From the UHGV virus genome UHGV-0125291: a DNA stretch of 13,212 bases; one strand, 5' to 3'. This DNA comes from a virus. Shown here piece after piece: positions 1 through 11,845 of the stretch. The translations under genes were made by a program, and so were the position numbers. Position 1 is the stretch's first letter. Every line of letters starts with the position of its first letter. The notes under the pieces were generated by a model that saw only the letters and a program-made list of their open reading frames with translations, was not told the DNA's origin and did no database searches.

Positions 1-1
1 T

Positions 2-541
2 GAGCGTCGAAATAAGGGGCGGTCCAGGCCAAAAACCAAAAAGGATCCATTCTTATCGCTTGCGCCGGTAAAAGAAATTTCTCCACATGCGAAGGCACTT
101 GCAGCACTGGCAAAGAACCCAGACCTGCGCGACGGAAATTGCGAGCACTTCGAGCAGGTTTTCATTTTTGATTACTTCGAACGCAAGCACCCTGACATCT
201 ATGAGCTGTTGCATGCAACGCCTAACGGAGGGAAACGTTCAAAAGCAACCGCCGGGAAAATGAAGGCTGAAGGGCAGAAAAAAGGTTATCCGGACATGAG
301 TCTCGATAAAGCATGCGGTATTTATCACGGCATGCGAATTGAGCTTAAAGAACCAAATGGTAAAGCCCCGACGAAAGAGCAGATCGCCTGGATGCGCAGG
401 CTTAGAGAGGAAGGTTACTACGTCGTTCTTGCGTATGGTGCAGAACAAGCGATAACCGCCATCCTGGAATACATAAGCCTTAAAAAGGGTGAGGCTATTG
501 AGCATGTATTGAACGGCGACAAGTGGTTGTATGCTGCTTAA
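2..541 (+). CDS. VRR-NUC-like nuclease domain protein, 5' partial (frame open to the window edge)
   Basis: The reading frame is open from position 2 with no in-frame ATG upstream; the only in-window start is TTG at 209, which lacks a convincing SD. The C-terminal part (GYPDMSL...GMRIELKEPNGKAPTKEQIAWMRRLREEGYYVVLAYG) fits a PD-(D/E)xK / VRR-NUC pattern (PD...ELK). The family call is pattern recognition, not a search. Confidence 0.55.
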   Translation, partial: ERRNKGRSRPKTKKDPFLSLAPVKEISPHAKALAALAKNPDLRDGNCEHFEQVFIFDYFERKHPDIYELLHATPNGGKRSKATAGKMKAEGQKKGYPDMSLDKACGIYHGMRIELKEPNGKAPTKEQIAWMRRLREEGYYVVLAYGAEQAITAILEYISLKKGEAIEHVLNGDKWLYAA

Positions 542-607
542 AATAATAAATTAATTAGTGCATATGTGCTCTTTGATATAGCGCACATTAACATCGGGAG
601 AATAATC

Positions 608-763
608 GTGTCATTCAAGGCTAATTATGAATCGCTGGCATCGATCATGCCGCGTAATGAACAGGAAGCAGATGCTGTAGTGGACCCGGTAATCGCTGAA
701 ATGAATGCTCGCCTGGAGGCTGAATTTGCAGCTGAGAATGAACATACCACCCAGGGCGACTAG
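608..763 (+). CDS. small acidic hypothetical protein (about 51 aa)
   Basis: GTG at 608 lies 7 nt after GGGAG (595-599); the ORF track gives 566..763 from an upstream start without an RBS. The 3' end overlaps the next gene and contains its SD. Confidence 0.3.
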   Translation: MSFKANYESLASIMPRNEQEADAVVDPVIAEMNARLEAEFAAENEHTTQGD

Positions 764-1367
764 GACTGTTTTTTGTGTCGGTAGCGGTCCGTCACTCACT
801 CGTGAGGACTGTGCTGCTATAGAAAAAACTGGCTGTTCAATCATCGCGGTTAACAATTCCTGGCAGATGTTCGATGACATTTATGCCTTATACGCCGGTG
901 ATTTGTCATGGTGGAAGCAATACGGATCCACCATACCGGGAGGGAGATTCCGCAAAGTGACAGCCAACCTGGCGGCGGCGAAATCATTTTCGTTGGAGTA
1001 CAGGCGATATTGTGGACCGGCGGAAGGGGTAAATAGCGGCGCGCAGGCTATCAGTCTGGCTGCTGAATCAGGGGCTGAAGTAGTGGTATTAGTCGGCTAT
1101 GACTGTTCTCTGCAAAACGGCCTTCATTGGCATGGCGCGCGCCCTCAAGCACTACGGAATCCAACGCAGGTGTCTATTTCAAAATGGCAACAGCAGTTCC
1201 TGGATACCCGCAAAAAACACGCAGATTTACATATTTTGAATGCAAGTAGGAGCAGTGCAATTCAATGTTTCCCAAGAATAAATTTAGAGGCAGTGATCGC
1301 GTTATTATCGTCGGCAGTGGCCCAAGCGCCGCAAACTTTGTTGCGCCGCGCGGAGTGCCGATTATAG
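726..1367 (+). CDS. hypothetical protein with N-terminal GxGPS motif (VGSGPS...IIAVN...VLVGYD), paralog A
   Basis: ORF track 705..1367. The preferred start is TTG 726, 6 nt after GGAGG (715-719); ATG 705 and ATG 738 are alternatives. It shares motif order and spacing with the next gene. A possible DUF115/MptE-like Rossmann-fold assignment is weak. Confidence 0.6.
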   Translation: MQLRMNIPPRATRTVFCVGSGPSLTREDCAAIEKTGCSIIAVNNSWQMFDDIYALYAGDLSWWKQYGSTIPGGRFRKVTANLAAAKSFSLEYRRYCGPAEGVNSGAQAISLAAESGAEVVVLVGYDCSLQNGLHWHGARPQALRNPTQVSISKWQQQFLDTRKKHADLHILNASRSSAIQCFPRINLEAVIALLSSAVAQAPQTLLRRAECRL

Positions 1368-1891
1368 CGGTCAATGGGGCCATCGACTGGCTTAACCGCG
1401 CTTCTTATTTTTTCACCCTTGATCCATCGCCAGACAATATGCGGCGCGTTGGTCGTGGCCGCCGTCGCCGTGGTGTTTGTTATTGCATGGCGCTACCCGA
1501 TGTTAAAGAACGTGAGGTCAGAGACGGCGTTCTGTGCTTCCGTCGTGTGGCTGAGCGCGGCACGGAGCCAAAAAATACGAATTCTCCCGAGTGGTGGGCG
1601 TGGCGCTGGTCCGCACATTTCGGACTTTGCGAAGATGAGAATGAAATTGCCAGCGGCAATAGTGCATATGGTGCTCTGAACCTGGCTTTCCATATCGGAT
1701 TCAAACATGTAGCCCTGGTGGGCGTTGACGCTACGCAAGAACCACGCGTTCATTCCGGCGGCACGCCAAAAAATCTAAGTCACCTGCCTTTGTTATTCCA
1801 GTCTGCGCGTGAACAGATTGACGTTGTTTCATGCGGGAAAATGGGAGGTATTCCGCAGATGACTCTTAAAGAATGGCTGAAGAATACATGA
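1265..1891 (+). CDS. hypothetical protein with N-terminal GxGPS motif (IVGSGPS...IIAVN...LVGVD), paralog B
   Basis: ATG 1265 is preceded by AGGAG (1248-1252). It is the only in-frame start before the conserved motif, and it forces a 103-nt out-of-frame overlap with paralog A. The stop TGA 1889-1891 overlaps the ATG of the next gene. Confidence 0.65.
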
Positions 1892-2565
1892 TGGCACCAA
1901 CAATTTATCACCGTATCGACGGTACCAAATACAGGAATATCTGGGTTGTTGGTGATCTGCATGGTTGCTACACCAGACTGATGTCCGAACTCCATCGTGT
2001 GGATTTTGACCCTGCGCAGGATTTACTGATATCGGTCGGCGACCTTATCGATCGCGGCACCGAAAATGTTAAATGCTTGGAGCTATTGCAGATGCCATGG
2101 TTCAGAGCGGTTATGGGCAACCATGAGCGGCTGATGATTGATGCGTTAAGTCCTGATGGCAACGTGAATAATTGGCTAATGAATGGCGGTCAATGGTTCT
2201 TCATGCTGGACGCTGATCAGGAAATATTAGCCAGGGCGCTGGTGGAGTTGGTAAGACGACTGCCCTATATCATTGAGTTGAACACCGGGCAAGAAACTAT
2301 CGTTATAGCCCATGCCGACTATCCGGATAATGAATACCAATTCGGTAAGGAGGTGCCGCTTTTCAACGTTGTCTGGGCGCGCGAGCGTATCAGTGATTCG
2401 ATGGATGATATTGGTGGCGAAATTTCGGGCGCAGATCGTTTTATCTTTGGTCACACTCCGGTGAAAAGCCCGAAGACATTCTGGAATCAGCAGTATATCG
2501 ACACTGGTGCCGTATTTTGCGGAAACCTGACATTGATGAAAGTGAAAGGTGATGGTGCAGCATGA
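1888..2565 (+). CDS. Ser/Thr protein phosphatase, lambda PP (NinI / ORF221) family metallophosphatase
   Basis: Metallophosphatase motifs GDLHGC, GDLIDRG and GNHE are present, and the protein is collinear with lambda phosphatase as recalled. The start at ATG 1888 overlaps the upstream stop (ATGA); ATG 1873 and ATG 1891 are alternatives. P1 carries an equivalent gene (ppp) by memory, so the symbol is left blank. Confidence 0.9.
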
Positions 2566-3263
2566 AGATTGCTTTAGTTTTTCGCTCTGGTGGTGACTAT
2601 AACGCTTCCGATGTGCAGTGGCTGGTTAATCAACTGCCAAAAGGCTATGAAATTATTTGCCTGACAGACCTGAAGCGTTTACATGTACCTGGCGTCAAAG
2701 TTGTCCCATTGATCAACCAGTGGCAAAAGTGCCGTGGCTGGTGGGCGAAAATCGAGTTGTTCCGACCGGATATAACCGATGATCTGTTCTATCTGGATTT
2801 GGACACGGTTATTGCCGGTGATATACGCCCAATCCTTGAGAATCCACCAACCAGCTTCACCATGCTTAGGGATTTTTACCATCCACAATATCGTGGCAGC
2901 GGTGCCCTGTGGATACCAAATAGTGTAAAAGCGCATATCTGGAGTTCATTCTGGCAAGATCCGGAAGGTTGGATTTCTCGTTGTGTCACTACTGAGTGCT
3001 GGGGTGATCAGGGGTTCTTACGGAAGGTTATGGGCGATGATACACCAGCATTTCAGGATCTGTATCCAGGATGGTTTGTAAGTTACAAGGCCGATGTTGT
3101 GGAACCTGGTTCAAAATATGCGAGCGCGCGTTACTCCAGGGGGAATGGGGCATTACCAAAGGACTGCCGAATAATCTTTTTCCACGGCAAACCGCGACCT
3201 CGCGAAGTGTCAGAGGATTGGCTTCCCCTTATCAGCTCGTTTTTTGAGCGAGAATCAGAATAA
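2562..3263 (+). CDS. hypothetical protein with DxD motif ([12 protein letters not shown]), possible GT-A-like glycosyltransferase
   Basis: ATG 2562 overlaps the phosphatase stop (ATGA at 2562-2565), with AAGGTGA upstream. The N-terminal beta-alpha start ([12 protein letters not shown]) followed by DLD resembles nucleotide-sugar transferases. The function is inference only. Confidence 0.6.
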
Positions 3264-3264
3264 T

Positions 3265-3281
3265 ATTGCTCTAATAATTCC
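3265..3281 (+). promoter_or_regulatory. P1 C1-repressor operator-like site (ATTGCTCTAATAATTCC), overlapping a possible -35 (TTGCTC)
   Basis: 14 of 17 positions match the asymmetric P1 C1 operator consensus ATTGCTCTAATAAATTT (recalled from literature). It sits 2 nt after the stop of the upstream gene and is followed at a fixed 19-nt offset by ATTTTTAAAAC, as is the copy at 5406. Confidence 0.5.
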
Positions 3282-3289
3282 ATATTTTT

Positions 3290-3319
3290 AAAACGTGATG
3301 TACACTCATCACGTTTTTT
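3290..3319 (+). terminator. Rho-independent terminator
   Basis: An 11-bp stem AAAACGTGATG / CATCACGTTTT with a 6-nt loop (3301-3306) is followed by a T-run ending at 3319. Confidence 0.6.
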
Positions 3320-3330
3320 ATTAGAGCAAT
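3314..3330 (-). promoter_or_regulatory. second C1 operator-like site, inverted orientation
   Basis: The reverse complement of 3314-3330 is ATTGCTCTAATAAAAAA, a 14/17 match to the consensus. With the site at 3265-3281 it forms a 13-bp inverted repeat enclosing the terminator hairpin. Confidence 0.45.
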
Positions 3331-3344
3331 CTACAAGGTGCACT

Positions 3345-3563
3345 ATGTGGCCATTCCGACGGAAATATCACTACTGGCTGATCGCCTTTGTTACGCCGAC
3401 CGGCGGTATCAGGCATGTCATCACCAGGTATCGCAACAAGAGACTCACCTTAGCCAGAATTTTACAGGCTGCCATAGGTGAGGGACTGGATACAAATTGC
3501 GTAGTCCTTCCTCCTTCATACTTAGGAAAAATGACCGAAGCACAAGCTAATACGGAACTTTGA
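3345..3563 (+). CDS. small hypothetical protein (72 aa)
   Basis: ATG 3345 lies 4 nt after AAGGTG (3335-3340). Its stop TGA 3561-3563 is 1 nt from the next ATG, suggesting coupling. No recognisable motifs. Confidence 0.4.
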   Translation: MWPFRRKYHYWLIAFVTPTGGIRHVITRYRNKRLTLARILQAAIGEGLDTNCVVLPPSYLGKMTEAQANTEL

Positions 3564-3564
3564 A

Positions 3565-4827
3565 ATGAGCACTTCAGCACAAAACCAATCAATCGAAAAT
3601 GTATCTATCCCTGACGTCCTGAATGCCGGTATCCCGGCCATTATCCAGAACATCCGGGCCGCGCAACGCCGCGTTAGTTGTGATGACCTCACAGCGCGTT
3701 TTTTTGATAATGCGGTTCAGTCAGCGGAGATGCTTCACGCACAGCTTATTGATGTTTATAACGCAGAAGCTGATAGCCATAACTCCCTGGTAGATGCAGC
3801 TGAAAATATGCAGTTGGATCTCGGTCTGAAGGGTAAAGAAATTGAAGAGCTTCAGCTGGAAATTGAACATTTGAAACGCCAGCAACAGGACGCGATCGAC
3901 GATGCGACGCATGACGCCAACCAGCGTGCTGATAATGCCGAACGTATAAGCATTGAGCTGGAAACAAAACTCAATGAAATGACCGCGATGGTTGAACTGC
4001 GGAACTCACAGATTTCAACGCTAAAATCTCAATATAAAGAGATCATGAAACTTGATCCTTTTAACCTTGAGAAACGCTATAACAAAGCTAAAAGCGAGCG
4101 ACAGGAACTGCGTAAGCAGGTCGCCGACCTTAACCAACAGCTCAAAAAAACTATTAAAGATGCAAGCGAAGCGCGCGTGGCATTTGCTAATAAAAAAGCA
4201 GAGGTTACCGCGCTGGTTAATGAGAATGCCAAATTTGCGACGCTCAAGAAGGAAATGTATGGCATTACTGAGCGCCGTTTCCCTGCAAGCAAACTTCATC
4301 CGACGTTAGGGCAAATCTCCTTCTTCCCGCGCCTCCTGGCTTATGGGATCTCATCGCCTAAAGAGTTCAATAACGAGCGTCCTTATATCGTTTCTAAGCT
4401 GGACTTTGCTTATCAGTTCTGCTGCGACATGGGCTATGCCATTGATATCCGAATCAACGAATGGTTGATGCCAAACTTCCAGCCGTTGGCAATTTTCCGC
4501 GAGTTCCAGCCGGAAGGTTGGGTAGAGTTCTTCCATGAATTGATCTGTAAAGAGATGGAAAGCCGCCGCCCGGAATTGGTCCGTCGAGTTGAGTGGGCGC
4601 AAGAGGTTATGTTGGCAGATGCAGAGCTGCCGTTCGAACCGGAATTCATTGATGATCTGGCAACTAAAGGGCTGCATACCCTGTTTGATGTGGTTACCCG
4701 CCGTCATGAGCAGTTGGTTGTCGAATTGGGTTTAGAGGAAACTGCGGCAAGAAGACTTCTCGATGTTTGCTATGCACGTAGCGATGCATGGGAAAAAGAG
4801 AACGGCGGCACTATTTACGTTCGCTGA
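3565..4827 (+). CDS. coiled-coil protein of unknown function (420 aa) with a C-terminal globular domain
   Basis: Long ORF. Residues about 80-230 are a heptad-rich charged segment (EIEELQLEIEHLKRQQQ..., ELRKQVADLNQQLKK); the C-terminal roughly 190 aa is aromatic and Cys-containing. No catalytic motif is recognised. Confidence 0.8.
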   Translation: MSTSAQNQSIENVSIPDVLNAGIPAIIQNIRAAQRRVSCDDLTARFFDNAVQSAEMLHAQLIDVYNAEADSHNSLVDAAENMQLDLGLKGKEIEELQLEIEHLKRQQQDAIDDATHDANQRADNAERISIELETKLNEMTAMVELRNSQISTLKSQYKEIMKLDPFNLEKRYNKAKSERQELRKQVADLNQQLKKTIKDASEARVAFANKKAEVTALVNENAKFATLKKEMYGITERRFPASKLHPTLGQISFFPRLLAYGISSPKEFNNERPYIVSKLDFAYQFCCDMGYAIDIRINEWLMPNFQPLAIFREFQPEGWVEFFHELICKEMESRRPELVRRVEWAQEVMLADAELPFEPEFIDDLATKGLHTLFDVVTRRHEQLVVELGLEETAARRLLDVCYARSDAWEKENGGTIYVR

Positions 4828-4847
4828 TAGTTACAGTGTCACTTTTA

Positions 4848-4880
4848 ATGCTGGTGGAGTGCGCCCACCAGCATTTTTTT
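4848..4880 (+). terminator. Rho-independent terminator
   Basis: A 10-bp stem ATGCTGGTGG / CCACCAGCAT with a 7-nt loop is followed by a T7 run (4874-4880), 20 nt after the stop of the 420-aa gene. Confidence 0.7.
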
Positions 4881-4899
4881 CGTCCAATGAGGAGGGCAT

Positions 4900-5406
4900 T
4901 TGAGTATTTTCAATAAACACGCACACCAGGAACGTCCGTACATCGTCATAGTAGATATTGATGGGACGATATCAGAGGCAACGGAAGACAGGCTGCATTT
5001 ACTTCCACCACCTGGCAAAGGTGCATTAACAGAGCACTGGAACGAGTTTAACCTTGCCTGTGACACTGATGCTCCCATCACTCCAGTTATTGATATGGTG
5101 CGCCAGTTGTCCGGCATTTACACCCTCTGGTTTGTAACCGGGCGCTGTGAGATCGCAAGGGATAAAACACGAGCCTGGTTGCGTAAGCACGTAACAAATG
5201 GGGCTGAGCCTTTGCTATCTATGCGTCCTGCCACCGATGACAGAAATGACGGCCCAGCAAAGATTGATCTCCTTAAGAAAATTGGTCTAAGCAAAATTGC
5301 GTTCGCGCTGGAAGATAAGATTGAAGTGGCGCGTGTTTTCAGGAGGCACGGCGTGCTTACGTTAATGGTCAGGGAGTATGAAAACGCGCTTCTCCATCAA
5401 CAATAA
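4900..5406 (+). CDS. HAD-superfamily phosphatase-like protein
   Basis: TTG start at 4900 is 4 nt after AGGAGG (4890-4895). HAD motif I DxDGT is present (VIVDIDGTI), with a downstream Thr (FVTGR), Lys and LEDK consistent with motifs II-IV. Confidence 0.75.
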   Translation: MSIFNKHAHQERPYIVIVDIDGTISEATEDRLHLLPPPGKGALTEHWNEFNLACDTDAPITPVIDMVRQLSGIYTLWFVTGRCEIARDKTRAWLRKHVTNGAEPLLSMRPATDDRNDGPAKIDLLKKIGLSKIAFALEDKIEVARVFRRHGVLTLMVREYENALLHQQ

Positions 5407-5422
5407 TTGCTCTAATAAATCA
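5406..5422 (+). promoter_or_regulatory. third C1 operator-like site (ATTGCTCTAATAAATCA), overlapping a possible -35
   Basis: 15 of 17 positions match the C1 operator consensus. It starts at the last base of the HAD gene stop codon and is followed at the same 19-nt offset by ATTTTTAAAAC (5425-5435). Confidence 0.5.
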
Positions 5423-5455
5423 TGATTTTTAAAACAGAGAAAGTGAAAATAAAAA

Positions 5456-5476
5456 CATGCCGCAAGGCGCGGCATG
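5456..5476 (-). terminator. GC-rich hairpin acting as an intrinsic terminator in the minus orientation
   Basis: An 8-bp stem CATGCCGC / GCGGCATG with a 5-nt loop. On the minus strand it is followed by UUUUUAUUUU (complement of 5441-5455); on the plus strand there is no U-tract, so there it would be a 5'-UTR structure. Confidence 0.4.
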
Positions 5477-5504
5477 TATCCAATCAATCACAGGAGCTGA
5501 AGAT

Positions 5505-5591
5505 ATGAACACGGCATTCAAAATCATTATGACCGCGATCTATTTCTGGCTGTTCTTTATCACTTTTGGCAGCATTGTCGCGCATGGGTAA
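5505..5591 (+). CDS. small hydrophobic peptide (28 aa, MNTAFKIIMTAIYFWLFFITFGSIVAHG), one predicted TM helix
   Basis: ATG 5505 is 8 nt after AGGAG (5492-5496) and the stop is TAA 5589-5591. It is below the 60-aa cutoff of the ORF track. It lies downstream of the operator/promoter module at 5406-5435. Confidence 0.35.
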   Translation: MNTAFKIIMTAIYFWLFFITFGSIVAHG

Positions 5592-5626
5592 GGGGAGTAT
5601 ATTAGCCATTTGGAACCCCACGGTCT

Positions 5627-5654
5627 CTTGCGGGTTTAATTAAGAACCCGCAAG
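5627..5654. other. perfect 10-bp stem-loop (CTTGCGGGTT-8 nt-AACCCGCAAG), not a canonical terminator
   Basis: Located 17 nt from the hsdR stop. The A-run is 3' on the plus strand and the U-run is 5' on the minus strand, so neither orientation gives hairpin plus U-tract. Confidence 0.4.
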
Positions 5655-5670
5655 AAAAACACGAATTGGG

Positions 5671-8600
5671 CTATATTTTTCCGCCTACGCCTTTAAACTT
5701 CTCAATAAACGAGACGATTTTCTGGAAAACTGCCTGTTTTTTCGTTTTATATTGCGGATTTAAAGGACTGAGTCTGGGCAGTGTCTCGTTTAATTCCGTG
5801 CCATTTTCGGTGGCGTATTCGCGTTTTAAAGACGTGCGAATATAGCGTTTCGCCGCCTCTTCATTGAGATTTTCTTCTTTTATCAATGCTTCTGCTTCAC
5901 GTTGCTGTTCGCGTTGAGCAAACGTAAAGAATGCGTCAATGATGCTGGCTTTGTCCGGTAAATCATCCAGGTTCGTTTGCTGAATAAAATCGACCACCAG
6001 GCCCTCTTTAGCACGGTTCCCCAGGCTTGAACGAATTAAGCGTTTGACCTCTTCGATCATTTCGCCCTTGCCTTTATTTTGTCTGTTGTGTTCGAAAATC
6101 AGTCCAAGGATATAATCCAGGTTTATTTCCTGAGACTTCAGCAAATCGACCTCAAAAACTACGTCATCCCAGTCAGTGGTTGATTTCTCTTTTTTCTCAG
6201 CTTCTTTCTCACGGCGCTGCCAGTCGCGAATATCGTTATAGGCAGAACGATAATCCTGAATCTTGCGATCAGCAGGGAGACGAATTGTTTGCAATTCAGC
6301 GAACTTTTCATCATCCACATAATGTTCTGCTTTGAATTTTTCTACCGCAACAGGATCGCTAAGATCGATTTGTTGCAGGGCTTTCAGCGTGGCAAATTCA
6401 TCATAGTTTTGCAGGATGTTCTCGGCACGCAGGTATTCACCAAACAGTTTAACGAAGTCTTTCTTCTCTTTTTCACTTTCAATACTGGTAGGGTCAGGGA
6501 ACCGTTGTTCCAGTTCTGAAACTACTGTCATGAAGCCGCGTTTAGCTTCACCAGTGGCAGCATCAGTAAAGCCTTCCATATACTCTGCATAACTCTTTTC
6601 TAAAACCACATTTTTGGTGTTTTTGTCACCAAACAGCGTTATGGCATCAATAGTTGAGCGTTCCAGATCCCGGAAAGTGACGATATTACCGAAGGTTTTA
6701 GTTGCATCATAAATACGGTTGGTGCGGGAAAATGCCTGCATCAGGCCGTGAAAACGCAAGTTTTTATCGACGAATAGCGTGTTCAATGTTGGAGCATCGA
6801 AGCCGGTTAAAAACATCCCCACGACAATTAACAGATCGATATCCTGATTTTTAACCCGTTGGGCTAAATCGCGATAGTAGTTCTGAAAACCGTTACCGTC
6901 GGTGCTGAAGTTAGTTTTAAAATAGCTGTTATACTCACGAATTGCAGCGTCAAGAAACTCTTTAGCACTGCTGTCCATTGCGCTGGTATCAAAAGTTTCA
7001 TCGGAAATTTCACCAATGGCATTTTGTTCTTCATTGGCGGCAAAGGAGAAGATTGTCGCAACACGCAGCGGTTTATAGGTAGCCGATTTATTAGCTGCTT
7101 CCTCTTGTAACCGTTTAAACGTCGCATAATAGGCTTTCGCGGCATCCACGCTGCTCACTGCCAACATAGCATTAAAACCTTTTGAGCCAGGGAAGGTACG
7201 GTGAGTTTTCTGGCGGAAATTATTCAGAATATATTGCGTGATTTCCTGAATACGCATGGGATGAAGAAACGCCTGCTGATTTTCAGCCGCACTTAGTTTT
7301 TTCTCGTCAGTTTCTGTCTCTAAAGACTTAAACTGTGGCCGCACATCGTTGTAGTCCACCTTGAATTTGAGCACTTTTTCGTCACGAATCGCATCGGTAA
7401 TTACATACGAATGCAATTCACGACCAAATACGCTGGCGGTTGTTTCTGAGCCTAAGGCGTTTTCCGGGAAAATAGGGGTGCCGGTAAAACCAAACTGATA
7501 ATAGCGTTTGAATTTCTTCTTCAGGTTTTTCTGCGCTTCTCCAAACTGGCTGCGGTGGCATTCATCAAATATAAACACCACTTGCTGATTGTATACAGGC
7601 AGGTCGCTTTCTGCTTTCATCAGGTTATTGAGTTTCTGAATAGTAGTGACGATAATTTTGTTATCGTCCTTATCCAGATTTCGTTTAAGGCCTGCGGTAT
7701 TTTCCGAGCCGTTGACGCTGTCTGGCGAAAAACGCTGATATTCCTTCATGGTCTGGTAATCGAGGTCTTTCCTGTCGACCACAAAGAAGACTTTATCAAT
7801 AAAGTCCAGCTCTGTTGCCAGACGCGCGGCTTTAAAGCTGGTGAGGGTTTTACCAGAACCGGTAGTGTGCCAGATATACCCACCGCTTTCCGGTTTTGAC
7901 CAGTTCTTCGCTGTAAAGGAACTCTTAATTTTCCACAGAATGCGCTCGGTGGCGGCAATCTGGTACGGTCGCATCACCAGTAGCGTCTGACTACTGTCAA
8001 AAACGCTGTAGTTCACCAGAACATTCAGCAGAGTATGTTTCTGGAAAAAGGTAGCGGTAAAGTCTTTGAGGTCTTTAATCAGCGTGTTGTCTGATTTCGC
8101 CCAGTTCATGGTGAAGTCAAAACTGTTTTTATCGCGCTTTGTCGTGTTGGCAAAATAACGGGTATCGGTGCCGTTAGAAATGACAAACAGTTGCAGATAC
8201 TTAAACAGGGAATTTTCGCTGTTAAAACTCTCTTTACTGTAACGATGTATCTGGTTGAAAGCCTCACGAATCGCCACCCCGCGTTTTTTTAGTTCGATTT
8301 GCACCAGCGGTAAACCATTAACCAGGATCGTGACGTCATAACGGTTAGCATGAGAACCCGTCTGTTCAAACTGCTGGATAATCTGCACCTTATTGCGCAT
8401 GAGATTCTTTTTATCTATCAAATAGATGTTCTCAAGTCGCCCGTCGTCAAAAATAAAGTCGCAGATATAGTCGATATGGATTTTACGGGTCTTATCCAGA
8501 ATGCCATCGCTGGGGTTGTCCAGATACTGCTCCGTGAAGCGCCGCCACTCGCTGTCATTAAACATCACACCATTGAGGCTCTGAAGCTGTTCCCGAACAT

Positions 8601-8787
8601 TAGACAGCATTGCCGACTGTGATTTTACGGAAATAAATTCATAACCCTGATTCCGCAGGTCCTGAATCAGTTCACGTTCCAGGTCCGATTCGCTCTGGTA
8701 GCTGTCGCTTGTTTGCTCAGCTTTGATGTACTTATCAAGGACGATAAAGTTATTGGATTCAGCAATGGTGTGTGTTTGATGAGTCAT
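5671..8787 (-). CDS. hsdR: Type I restriction enzyme R subunit (HsdR), EcoR124 (Type IC) family
   Basis: 1038 aa. Walker A ([11 protein letters not shown]) and a DEAD-box-like motif (FDECH) are present. The N-terminus [24 protein letters not shown] matches EcoR124I HsdR as recalled. RBS AAGGA lies 5 nt before the ATG. Confidence 0.95.
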
Positions 8788-8908
8788 AGCGCATCCTTTG
8801 TGCCGCCTGGCAAGGGCCGGAAAGGCGTTAAGAGTGACTTCCGGCGCGTAAAAAATAGTCTATATACTGACCGGATGTTAAGGAGGCCCGGTCGGTAGCA
8901 ATGGTCAA

Positions 8909-10143
<1,235 letters not shown>

Positions 10144-10147
<4 letters not shown>

Positions 10148-11706
10148 GATTGCGCCTCGTCACCTTCAATCTTTGCCACAATTGCATCAATATCTTTACG
10201 CAACTGGTCGATTTTGCTGACCGTGGTTTTCAGCTCAGCATTCAGCTCACCGATATCGATAATTTCGCGGTTATCTTTCGCTTCCACATAGCTGCTCACC
10301 GACAGGTTATAGTCATTCGCGACAACAGTCTCAAACGTGACAGATTTTGCCAGATGAGCAACATCTTCCTTGCTGGCAAATACCTGCATAATCTGTTCGA
10401 TATGGGCATCGGTCAGGATATTGTTGTTGGTCTCTTTTTTGAACAGTTCGCTGGCGTCAATAAACTGAACGTTGGTATCCGTTTTATGTTTAGACAGAAC
10501 CAGAATGTTTACGGCAATGGTGGTGCCAAAGAACAGGTTCGGTGCCAGTGAAATCACGGTTTCGACATAGTTATTGTCGACCAGATACTGACGGATTTTC
10601 TGCTCCGCGCCGCCACGGTAAAAAATACCCGGGAAGCAGACAATCGCAGCACGACCTTTGGCCGAAAGATAGTTCAGCGCATGTAATACAAACGCAAAGT
10701 CAGCTTTGGATTTGGGGGCCAGAACGCCAGCCGGGGCAAAACGCTCATCGTTAATCAGCGTCGGGTCATCGCTGCCAATCCATTTCACCGAATACGGCGG
10801 GTTAGAAACGATGGCATCAAACGGTTTTTCATCTCTGAAGTGCGGCTCAGTCAGCGTATTGCCCAGCTTGATATCAAACTTGTCGTAGTTGATGTTGTGC
10901 AAAAACATGTTCATACGCGCCAGGTTATAGGTCGTATGGTTGATTTCCTGACCAAAAAAACCTTCTTCGATGATATGGTTATCAAACTGTTTTTTCGCCT
11001 GCAACAACAGTGAGCCGGAACCCGCTGCCGGGTCGTAGATTTTGTTAACGCTGGTCTGCCCGTGCATAGCCAGTTGTGCAATCAGCTTGGAGACGTGCTG
11101 CGGTGTAAAGAACTCGCCGCCTGACTTACCAGCATTCGCCGCATAGTTAGAAATCAGGAACTCATAGGCATCACCGAACAGGTCAATCTGATGTTCGTTG
11201 AAGTCACCAAGTTTTAACCCTTCAACCCCTTTCAGAACCGCAGCCAGGCGGGCATTTTTATCTTTAACGGTGTTACCCAGGCGGTTACTGGTGGTATCGA
11301 AATCAGCAAACAAACCTTTGATGTCAGCTTCTGAAGGGTAACCGTAAGCAGAACTTTCGATAGCAACGAAGATGCTGTTTAAATCTGCATTCAGTCTGTC
11401 ATTGGTATTTGCTTTCGCAGCTACGTTGCAGAAAAGCTGACTGGGGTAGATGAAGTAGCCTTTAGTTTTGATGGCATCGTCTTTAATGTCATCAGTAATT
11501 ACGCTGTCATCCAGTTTCGCATAACAGATACTGTCATCACCGGCTTCAATATAACTGGAAAAATTTTCGCTGATAAAACGGTAGAAAAGCGCGCCCAGAA
11601 CGTATTGCTTAAAATCCCATCCATCGACCGAACCCCTGACATCGTTAGCAATTTGCCAGATTTGACGATGAAGCTCTGCACGTTGTTGAATACTTGTCAT
11701 TTTCAT
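10144..11706 (-). CDS. hsdM: Type I R-M DNA methyltransferase subunit (HsdM), N6-adenine
   Basis: 520 aa. The AdoMet motif ([10 protein letters not shown]) and the catalytic NPPY motif (SNPPYS) are present. A second Met 2 codons in (ATG 11698-11700) is an alternative start. Confidence 0.95.
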
Positions 11707-11845
11707 CCACTTATTTCAGGCTTATGTAATTGGCGGTGATTCTACAGCAACTTGGATGCTTTAGCAGTTCGGACATTAGGCTACGAATGACCTGCCTAGA
11801 GGTTTGTTAAGCCGCAAAGTGCTGGTGCTTTATGCCTGTGAAGTT

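Follow-up and report, generated by a model that had tools for sequence, protein, structure and literature searches.

A conserved pmgR-pmgS-pap segment with predicted C1-controlled promoters in a P1-type phage-plasmid genome

Positions 3265-5435 of the virus genome UHGV-0125291 are pmgR-pmgS-pap, a segment annotated in the backbone of phage P1 (the window, throughout, is the whole stretch of DNA that was analysed, 13,212 nucleotides). This is an already known, ordinary segment, since it is annotated in P1 and since the 30-bp repeats found at its two ends are predicted repressor-controlled promoters of successive operons. Taken as a whole, we propose with a probability of roughly 0.85 that it is a native P1-type stretch with C1-repressible promoters, in which PmgS and Pap would be dispensable accessory proteins whose roles we infer below. 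The importance of the finding is limited: the P1 GenBank record has held the operators, promoters and genes since 2004, and the obvious knock-outs have already been published. What is new here is the three-part architecture of PmgS (a coiled-coil hairpin, an alpha/beta domain and a C-terminal (HhH)2 domain) together with the neighbourhoods of its homologues.

The region 3200-5500 of the window is 98.6% identical at the DNA level to P1 (AF234172), where it is homologous to 82087-84387, and 98.1% identical to P7; 19 phage records match it at full coverage. At the matching positions AF234172 carries OpmgRa/Op86a, PpmgR, OpmgRb/Op86b, pmgR, pmgS, pap, OpmgT/Op88 and P1/P2pmgT, and corresponding elements are annotated in the P7 record. 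With P1 (AF234172 / NC_005856; Lobocka et al. 2004) the segment shares genes, order, spacing, operators, promoters and terminators, and within pmgR-pmgS-pap the differences are point substitutions only. P7 (AF503408) likewise has shtA-shtB-pap with three annotated C1 operators, but differs in the gene names, in the roles guessed for the genes ('sheath structure or assembly', 'sheath contraction') and in the downstream operon. At least 633 PLSDB plasmids contain the pmgR-pmgS-pap stretch at 95% identity or more, and the stretch is therefore conserved core rather than cargo. Both pmgR and pmgS belong to a set of 21 genes that are extremely conserved among P1-like phage-plasmids. The first-pass annotation had offered conserved P1 backbone genes as its fallback reading, and this is the reading that proved correct. 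An Rfam scan of the whole window returned no RNA family. The features are as follows.

3265-3281, + strand: C1 operator OpmgRa (formerly Op86a), three mismatches to the consensus; annotated in P1 AF234172
3289-3294, + strand: -10 hexamer TAAAAC of PpmgR (spacer to the -35: 17 nt), corresponding to ATTTTTAAAAC in the repeat; from the P1 record and direct repeat D1
3290-3319, + strand: hairpin AAAACGTGATG/CATCACGTTTT followed by a T-run (inverted repeat I4), dG -13.4 kcal/mol, z -5.0
3314-3330, - strand: C1 operator OpmgRb (formerly Op86b), inverted relative to Op86a; from the consensus match and the P1 record
3345-3563, + strand: pmgR (shtA in P7), 72 aa, product identical (100%) to PmgR of P1 and P7
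3565-4827, + strand: pmgS (shtB in P7), 420 aa, two substitutions relative to P1
4847-4882, + strand: intrinsic terminator in the pmgS/pap gap (inverted repeat I6), from terminator and folding scans
4900-5406, + strand: pap, 168 aa, TTG start, RBS GAGGAGGG, seven substitutions relative to P1
5406-5422, + strand: C1 operator OpmgT (formerly Op88), two mismatches to the consensus; from the P1 record
5430-5435, + strand: -10 hexamer TAAAAC of P2pmgT; from the P1 record and direct repeat D1
5505-5591, + strand: unannotated hydrophobic 28-aa ORF, the first ORF 3' of the Op88 promoter, intact in P1 and P7

The two ends of the segment are marked by a direct repeat (D1, 3265-3294 and 5406-5435) with 26 of 30 positions identical (87%), in both copies of which ATTGCTCTAATAA and ATTTTTAAAAC stand in the same register. 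A scan with the P1 C1 operator consensus ATTGCTCTAATAAATTT, a 17-bp asymmetric site, allowing up to three mismatches, gave three matches in the stretch (3265-3281 +, 3314-3330 - and 5406-5422 +). Shuffled sequences gave a mean of 0.08 matches per whole window, and none of 200 shuffles reached three. The repeat and its operator-like sites, as first described, are thus real; the inverted operator at 3314-3330, which inverted repeat I2 (13-nt arms with 100% complementarity, separated by 40 nt) also supports, had been overlooked. OpmgRa starts 2 nt past the pmgQ stop codon and covers the -35 hexamer TTGCTC (3266-3271) of PpmgR, and OpmgT, whose first base is the last base of the pap stop codon, covers the same hexamer (5407-5412) of P2pmgT. 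TTGCTC, a 17-nt spacer and TAAAAC accordingly recur at 3266-3294 and 5407-5435. The status of PpmgR and P2pmgT as promoters comes from the P1 record, which lists them as 'predicted'; a generic sigma-70 consensus scan called neither, because TAAAAC is a weak -10. The same record cross-references separate earlier deposits of Op88 (M25414, X98146).

The 30-bp module would thus be a C1-repressible sigma-70 promoter, with the -35 held within the 17-bp C1 operator. The left module would comprise PpmgR and Op86a, reinforced by Op86b, which lies inverted 33 nt downstream as a second operator, and would drive the closely spaced and probably translationally coupled pmgR-pmgS pair, while the right module (P2pmgT and Op88) would begin the next rightward operon. 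By analogy with established P1 biology, C1 bound to the operators in a lysogen would shut both promoters, and inactivation of C1 would let these early transcription units fire. The first-pass annotation had regarded the segment as a cassette bracketed by operators. This is not supported: for both modules the P1 record shows a C1 operator that overlaps the -35 hexamer of a promoter reading rightward, and the right-hand module therefore starts a further operon instead of closing pmgR-pap.

Two hairpins stand out. The one at 3290-3319 sits between the inverted operators Op86a and Op86b and probably terminates the pmgN-ppp-pmgQ operon upstream; RNA initiated at PpmgR would begin inside it and so escape termination. 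The other, between pmgS and pap, has an 11-pair stem (4847-4875) and a T-run to 4882 (dG -18.1 kcal/mol, z -3.8), in agreement with the strong internal terminator claimed earlier. Pap, encoded beyond it, has its own RBS. Since a promoter search recognised none for pap, its transcription would depend on read-through past the terminator at 4882.

The three ORFs are as originally called, including the start of pmgS 1 nt past the pmgR stop and the TTG start of pap, whereas their description as uncharacterised can be kept only in part. The first of them, pmgR, is essential in P1 and has a published phenotype: when it is deleted, heads and tails fail to join, tails and incomplete heads being produced, and the defect is complemented in trans (Gonzales 2022, PMC9024508). 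The protein matches phrog_3177, a family of unknown function, over its full length (residues 1-72, E 4.3e-47); sequence comparison with the PDB found no relative, and Pfam, NCBIfam and PADLOC searches with PmgR returned nothing. As for the other two genes, an in-frame deletion of pmgS and a deletion of pap are both viable in P1, with normal plaquing and unchanged restriction by EcoA, EcoB and EcoK, and CRISPRi scoring in P1 found both non-essential.

PmgS matches its own family, phrog_1660, over its full length (residues 1-420, E 2.4e-195). The first-pass description of a coiled coil followed by a C-terminal part was sound and can be refined. In the predicted structure of PmgS, an antiparallel coiled-coil hairpin (residues 41-232, nt 3685-4260) turns back at the conserved P165; it is followed by an alpha/beta domain without structural match (residues 238-347, nt 4276-4605) and by an (HhH)2 domain (residues 359-412, nt 4639-4800), with two helix-hairpin-helix motifs in a five-helix bundle. 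The closest known kin of the last are the (HhH)2 domains of the RAD51/RadA N-terminal domain, NusA AR1/AR2 and the RNA polymerase alpha C-terminal domain. However, none of these proteins has a counterpart of the coiled-coil hairpin and alpha/beta domain, for which no match was found in the PDB or BFVD, and PmgS has no ATPase core. In P1 PmgS the second hairpin reads ELGLEE and the KGIG signature of the family is lost, which makes DNA binding by this protein uncertain. Similarity of PmgS to SMC, Rad50, LmuB and JetC in Pfam, NCBIfam and PADLOC searches was rejected as compositional coiled-coil noise. The tail needle gp26 of P22 was considered as a relative on the basis of a family-profile match (3.5e-6) and set aside as weak; being restricted to the coiled-coil region, the match is no evidence for a role of PmgS in the tail.

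Databases present PmgS as a morphogenetic protein ('putative morphogenetic function' in P1, 'sheath contraction' for ShtB of P7, 'PmgS-like head morphogenesis' in PHROGs), and it might indeed cooperate with PmgR, either in completing heads or in how the tail functions. Its gene starts 1 nt from the stop of a morphogenetic gene, and the PmgR-PmgS pair is kept in three distant P1-type elements (PmgR 29-38% and PmgS about 25-27% identical), which fits a shared, possibly morphogenetic, role; a long coiled coil, with its faint resemblance to gp26, also recalls assembly chaperones and fibres. Nonetheless, we consider this reading unlikely. A morphogenetic role sits poorly with a viable deletion and a non-essential CRISPRi score, and the study of the virion proteome does not mention PmgS anywhere in its main text, virion table included (Gonzales 2022, PMC9024508). 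The pmgR-pmgS operon has C1-controlled promoters only, with no late promoter annotated in the P1 record, and the C-terminal (HhH)2 domain is a nucleic-acid or protein docking module. Moreover, in phages with lambda-like terminases and in other prophages the homologues of PmgS lie in early recombination/methylase regions, far from structural genes and without PmgR. Distant homologues directly follow RecT/exonuclease genes in five loci (L010, L019, L033, L009 and L048) and stand beside DNA methyltransferase genes in five (L004, L008, L009, L048 and L050). Scans for related loci with the single proteins P0039 and P0057 found no loci.

Because of this domain architecture and the RecT/exonuclease and methyltransferase neighbours of distant homologues, the morphogenetic label that has been propagated for PmgS in PHROGs and RefSeq is probably wrong, and structure and neighbourhoods suggest an early DNA-related role. 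PmgS would then dock onto DNA or protein during early DNA transactions rather than being part of the virion. It is tempting to go further and to regard the whole family as a mislabelled, conserved early-phase factor that acts in DNA transactions alongside RecT/exonuclease and DNA-methylation genes, possibly as a recombination or genome-protection accessory or in counter-defence, with Pap as a separate end-healing 3'-phosphatase. This broader version is tentative, and we give it somewhat less than even odds.

As first proposed, Pap is by its sequence a HAD-superfamily phosphatase of the PNKP phosphatase-domain family. It matches Pfam HAD_PNKP (PF25109) at 2e-11 and 44.7 bits, above the cut-off of 27.6, has the DxDGT nucleophile motif as VDIDGT at residues 18-23, and matches the PHROG 'polynucleotide kinase' family (1e-55) and, weakly, the solved Pnkp1 structure 4xrp. 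The P1 record names it 'putative acid phosphatase'. With T4 Pnkp and bacterial Pnkp1 it shares the phosphatase domain family and motif, but it consists of that domain alone, without the kinase domain and with no ligase partner nearby. It may be an end-processing enzyme of the polynucleotide 3'-phosphatase type. A general association between Pap and PmgS was considered and rejected: a Pap-like gene lies near PmgS in close P1 relatives and in only one unrelated phage lineage (L004-L007), and pap was not found beside pmgR-pmgS in the distant P1-type loci L003 and L046, nor in the 36 loci of the P0048 group.

The first-pass annotation had also suggested that the three genes might form one repressor-controlled defence or anti-defence module, guarding the lysogen, or P1 against host defences, beside the restriction-modification/toxin-antitoxin island. 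Several observations would agree with this. Lytic growth needs neither pmgS nor pap, the stretch adjoins variable region 8 of P1-like phage-plasmids (pmgT to humD), where this element has a type IC restriction-modification insertion, and the orphan DNA methyltransferases and recombination genes beside PmgS homologues are typical counter-defence company. The phosphatase family of Pap includes T4 Pnkp, which repairs tRNA after cleavage by the anticodon nuclease PrrC, itself associated with a type IC hsd locus. The suggestion nevertheless fares badly, and we regard it as very unlikely. Against PADLOC-DB 2.0, PmgR, Pap and PmgQ gave no match, and the PmgS coiled coil reached at most 18 bits against the arms of LmuB/JetC. 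Universal core conservation, at 95% identity or more in the plasmids and in the 19 phages, is unlike that of mobile cargo; pmgR is an essential morphogenesis gene; and the C1 sites are, by the P1 record, promoter-operators rather than brackets. Nor are the three genes one unit, as the terminator sets pap apart and distant P1-type loci have the pair without it. Restriction was normal in the pmgS and pap deletions, but since these probed only three type I systems, the idea keeps some room for these two genes. The first-pass interpretation stands as regards the P1 backbone and is unsupported as regards bracketing and defence.

Beyond the segment the element departs from P1. Homology to P1 stops at 5595, 4 nt past the stop of the 28-aa ORF, and what follows in P1, pmgT to humD, is replaced here by a convergent type IC hsdRSM locus, an arrangement present in at least 186 plasmids. 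P1 flanks of type IC hsd loci were reportedly described by Tyndall and colleagues in 1997. The arrangement is also noted in the P1 record, by way of identity to the regions flanking the EcoDXXI hsd locus.

For P1 biology, an early DNA-related role of PmgS would be a concrete hypothesis for a gene that is highly conserved yet dispensable. The segment, in turn, marks the precise left-hand limit of a recombination hot spot: in a large share of P1-like plasmids an operon has given way there to a type IC restriction system, so that a predicted C1-controlled promoter is now convergent with hsdR.

The segment with pmgR (3345-3563), pmgS (3565-4827) and pap (4900-5406) belongs to the backbone of phage P1. 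Window 3200-5500 has full-length matches in 19 phage records (97.7-99.1% identity), with 98.6% identity to P1 and 98.1% to P7, and window 1-5595 is collinear with P1 78888-84482 (98.2%). Every element of this segment is annotated at the homologous position in the P1 GenBank record AF234172, including pmgR, pmgS and pap; in P7 the same operators are annotated, and the genes are named shtA, shtB and pap. P1 and P7 encode a PmgR identical to this one (100%); PmgS and Pap differ from their P1 counterparts by 2 and 7 residues, respectively. At least 633 PLSDB plasmid records carry at least 80% of window 3200-5500, and, with a single exception, the 685 records that match are at least 95% identical, so that we consider the segment to be conserved backbone. 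Among 54 compared P1-like phage-plasmids, pmgR and pmgS were found to be among 21 extremely conserved genes, and pmgT to humD, directly to the right, to be one of eight highly variable regions (PMC9603915). The first-pass annotation had suggested a defence or anti-defence cassette, an idea that such conservation, which it had itself named as speaking against it, largely answers and that is not supported; its alternative, conserved P1 backbone, was correct. The three ORFs are as it described them, but 'uncharacterised' is only partly right for them: everything in the segment is already annotated and partly characterised, with deletion phenotypes published (PMC9024508).

The same annotation saw operators bracketing the cassette. 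A module of about 30 bp is indeed present on both sides, 3265-3294 and 5406-5435 being a direct repeat with 26 of 30 positions identical. Three sites agree with the P1 C1 operator consensus ATTGCTCTAATAAATTT at no more than 3 mismatches (shuffle control: mean 0.08; three matches in 0 of 200 shuffles), listed here with their names at the homologous positions of AF234172.

C1 operator matches (at most 3 mismatches to the consensus)
3265-3281, plus strand: OpmgRa (former Op86a), described in the P1 record as controlling pmgR and pmgS expression
3314-3330, minus strand: OpmgRb (Op86b), on the opposite strand in P1 as well
5406-5422, plus strand: OpmgT (Op88), overlapping the -35 of promoter P2pmgT

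The P1 record also holds a predicted promoter, PpmgR, with its -35 (TTGCTC) within the operator and the TAAAAC of the repeated module as its -10; the -10 of P2pmgT is also TAAAAC. By the P1 annotation, the repeat is one type of predicted C1-repressible promoter used twice, each copy opening a rightward transcription unit; in each case the preceding gene's stop codon lies at the start of the copy or just before it. The copy on the right is part of the next operon rather than the border of a cassette. The inverted operator at 3314-3330, absent from the first-pass annotation, forms a perfect 13-nt inverted repeat with 3265-3277. Enclosed by it is a hairpin (3290-3317; dG -13.4 kcal/mol, z -5.0) followed by a T-run, most simply what terminates the upstream pmgN-ppp-pmgQ operon. 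The PpmgR transcript would start about 7 nt past the -10, inside this hairpin, and for that reason should not be terminated by it. At the position of another P1 operator, Oppp (Op83; 548-564, minus strand), the window reads TATGCACTAATTAATTT, with 4 mismatches to the consensus, presumably a weaker operator than these three. The upstream 'pmg' genes (209-3263, plus strand), all reported to be non-essential in P1, look enzymatic rather than structural: a VRR-NUC nuclease occupies the pmgM position (209-541), PmgO and PmgP have MptE-like, if weak, matches, Ppp is a calcineurin-like phosphoesterase and PmgQ belongs to a PHROG with the label 'glycosyltransferase'.

The pmgS start codon lies 1 nt past the pmgR stop codon, and pap has a TTG start with the ribosome-binding site GAGGAGGG. 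Between pmgS and pap we recovered the strong terminator noted earlier (11-bp stem at 4847-4875, T-run to 4882, dG -18.1 kcal/mol, z -3.8). To the right, P1 homology breaks off at 5595 and is found again from 11807, just ahead of phd-doc; hsdR, hsdS and hsdM (5596-11806, minus strand) stand in place of P1 pmgT to humD, with a GC content of 0.44 versus about 0.48-0.50 in the flanks. Since HsdR has an EcoR124_C domain, the locus is type IC-like. Both junctions (5595/5596 and 11806/11807) fall where the P1 record notes identity to sequences flanking the EcoDXXI hsd locus, and at least 186 PLSDB plasmids share at least 80% of the whole window, hsd arrangement included. Therefore, the restriction-modification 'island' is one of the known alleles of variable region 8, and a common one. 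Through this replacement, hsdR and the C1-controlled Op88 promoter are convergent, and antisense RNA to hsdR might arise on induction. The first ORF past this promoter (5505-5591, plus strand) is unannotated; it is preceded by a CAGGAG ribosome-binding site and encodes a hydrophobic 28-aa product, MNTAFKIIMTAIYFWLFFITFGSIVAHG. Both P1 and P7 retain the intact ORF, its product differing by 3 amino acids, and P1 homology ends 4 nt past its stop codon. Two strong hairpins lie between the promoter and the hsdR end: 5455-5477 (dG -16.3 kcal/mol) resembles a terminator only when read on the minus strand, and 5626-5655 (dG about -20.5 kcal/mol) has a U-tract on neither strand.

In-frame deletions of the three genes were made by Gonzales et al. 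2022 (PMC9024508). Without pmgR there were no plaques, and pmgR in trans restored plaque formation; phage lacking pmgS or pap were still infectious, with 'normal restriction' for EcoA, EcoB and EcoK hosts (Supplementary Table S3). Both genes were non-essential also in a CRISPRi screen (PMC10695390). Pap is a predicted HAD phosphatase of the polynucleotide kinase/phosphatase type, matching PF25109 (2e-11, above cut-off) and the PHROG 'polynucleotide kinase' family (1e-55); it has the DIDGT motif and no kinase domain. Profile and PDB searches with PmgR returned no family with known function and no PDB relative.

No Pfam family is specific to PmgS, and its PADLOC and NCBIfam matches were rejected as coiled-coil noise only. 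Close relatives occur only on contigs that are as large as P1-type elements (about 90-100 kb), and the C-terminal half, searched exhaustively, gave about 30 representatives (380-470 residues, 22-31% identity) with a common architecture. The AlphaFold models are confident both for the full-length protein (pLDDT 84) and for residues 226-420 (pLDDT 90.7, pTM 0.85).

Architecture of PmgS (AlphaFold)
Residues 41-160 and 167-232: helices of an antiparallel coiled-coil hairpin, turning at the nearly invariant proline P165
Residues 238-347: small alpha/beta domain, with no match in PDB or BFVD
Residues 359-412: C-terminal helical bundle

The KGIG hairpin of the family reads ELGLEE in P1 PmgS, making DNA binding by this protein uncertain.

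In three distant P1-type elements (L003 1-5040, L046 1-2019 and L051 2082-2498; sizes about 80-97 kb, with a Pantoea plasmid as one source), the gene immediately before the PmgS homologue encodes a PmgR homologue (29-38% identity), so the pair is old; pap is not beside it in L003 or L046. These elements keep the pmgQ-pmgR-pmgS order and a DarB-like giant methylase-helicase (about 2,255 aa; two of the three), and in L051 an Lpa homologue directly follows the PmgS homologue. PmgS homologues are also present in unrelated temperate phages and prophages, where PmgR is missing and the gene sits in an early region instead of a structural module.

Neighbourhoods of PmgS homologues
L010, L019 and L033 (standing for 36 IMG/VR loci): directly after RecT and a YqaJ or PDDEXK exonuclease
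Aeromonas phage phiARM81mr: after exonuclease VIII, RecT and integrase, before Dam methylase
Aeromonas salmonicida prophage: after DUF3799 and RecT, before MT-A70 methylase and RdgC
Vibrio phage douglas 12A4: directly before a DNA methyltransferase
L004, a phage with lambda-type terminase: directly before a C5 methylase
L050: two genes after a C5 methylase

The tight, conserved pairing of pmgS with pmgR would agree with PmgS being a morphogenetic protein, as its label says. We consider this unlikely, since the neighbourhoods, the (HhH)2 domain (residues 359-412) and the viable deletion favour a role in early DNA transactions, as do the absence of PmgS from the main text of PMC9024508, virion table included, and the annotation of only C1-controlled promoters, and no late promoter, upstream of pmgS. 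An accessory role in early DNA transactions thus seems to fit PmgS better than a 'morphogenetic' one, and this better-founded hypothesis for the PmgS family is the sole new element here.
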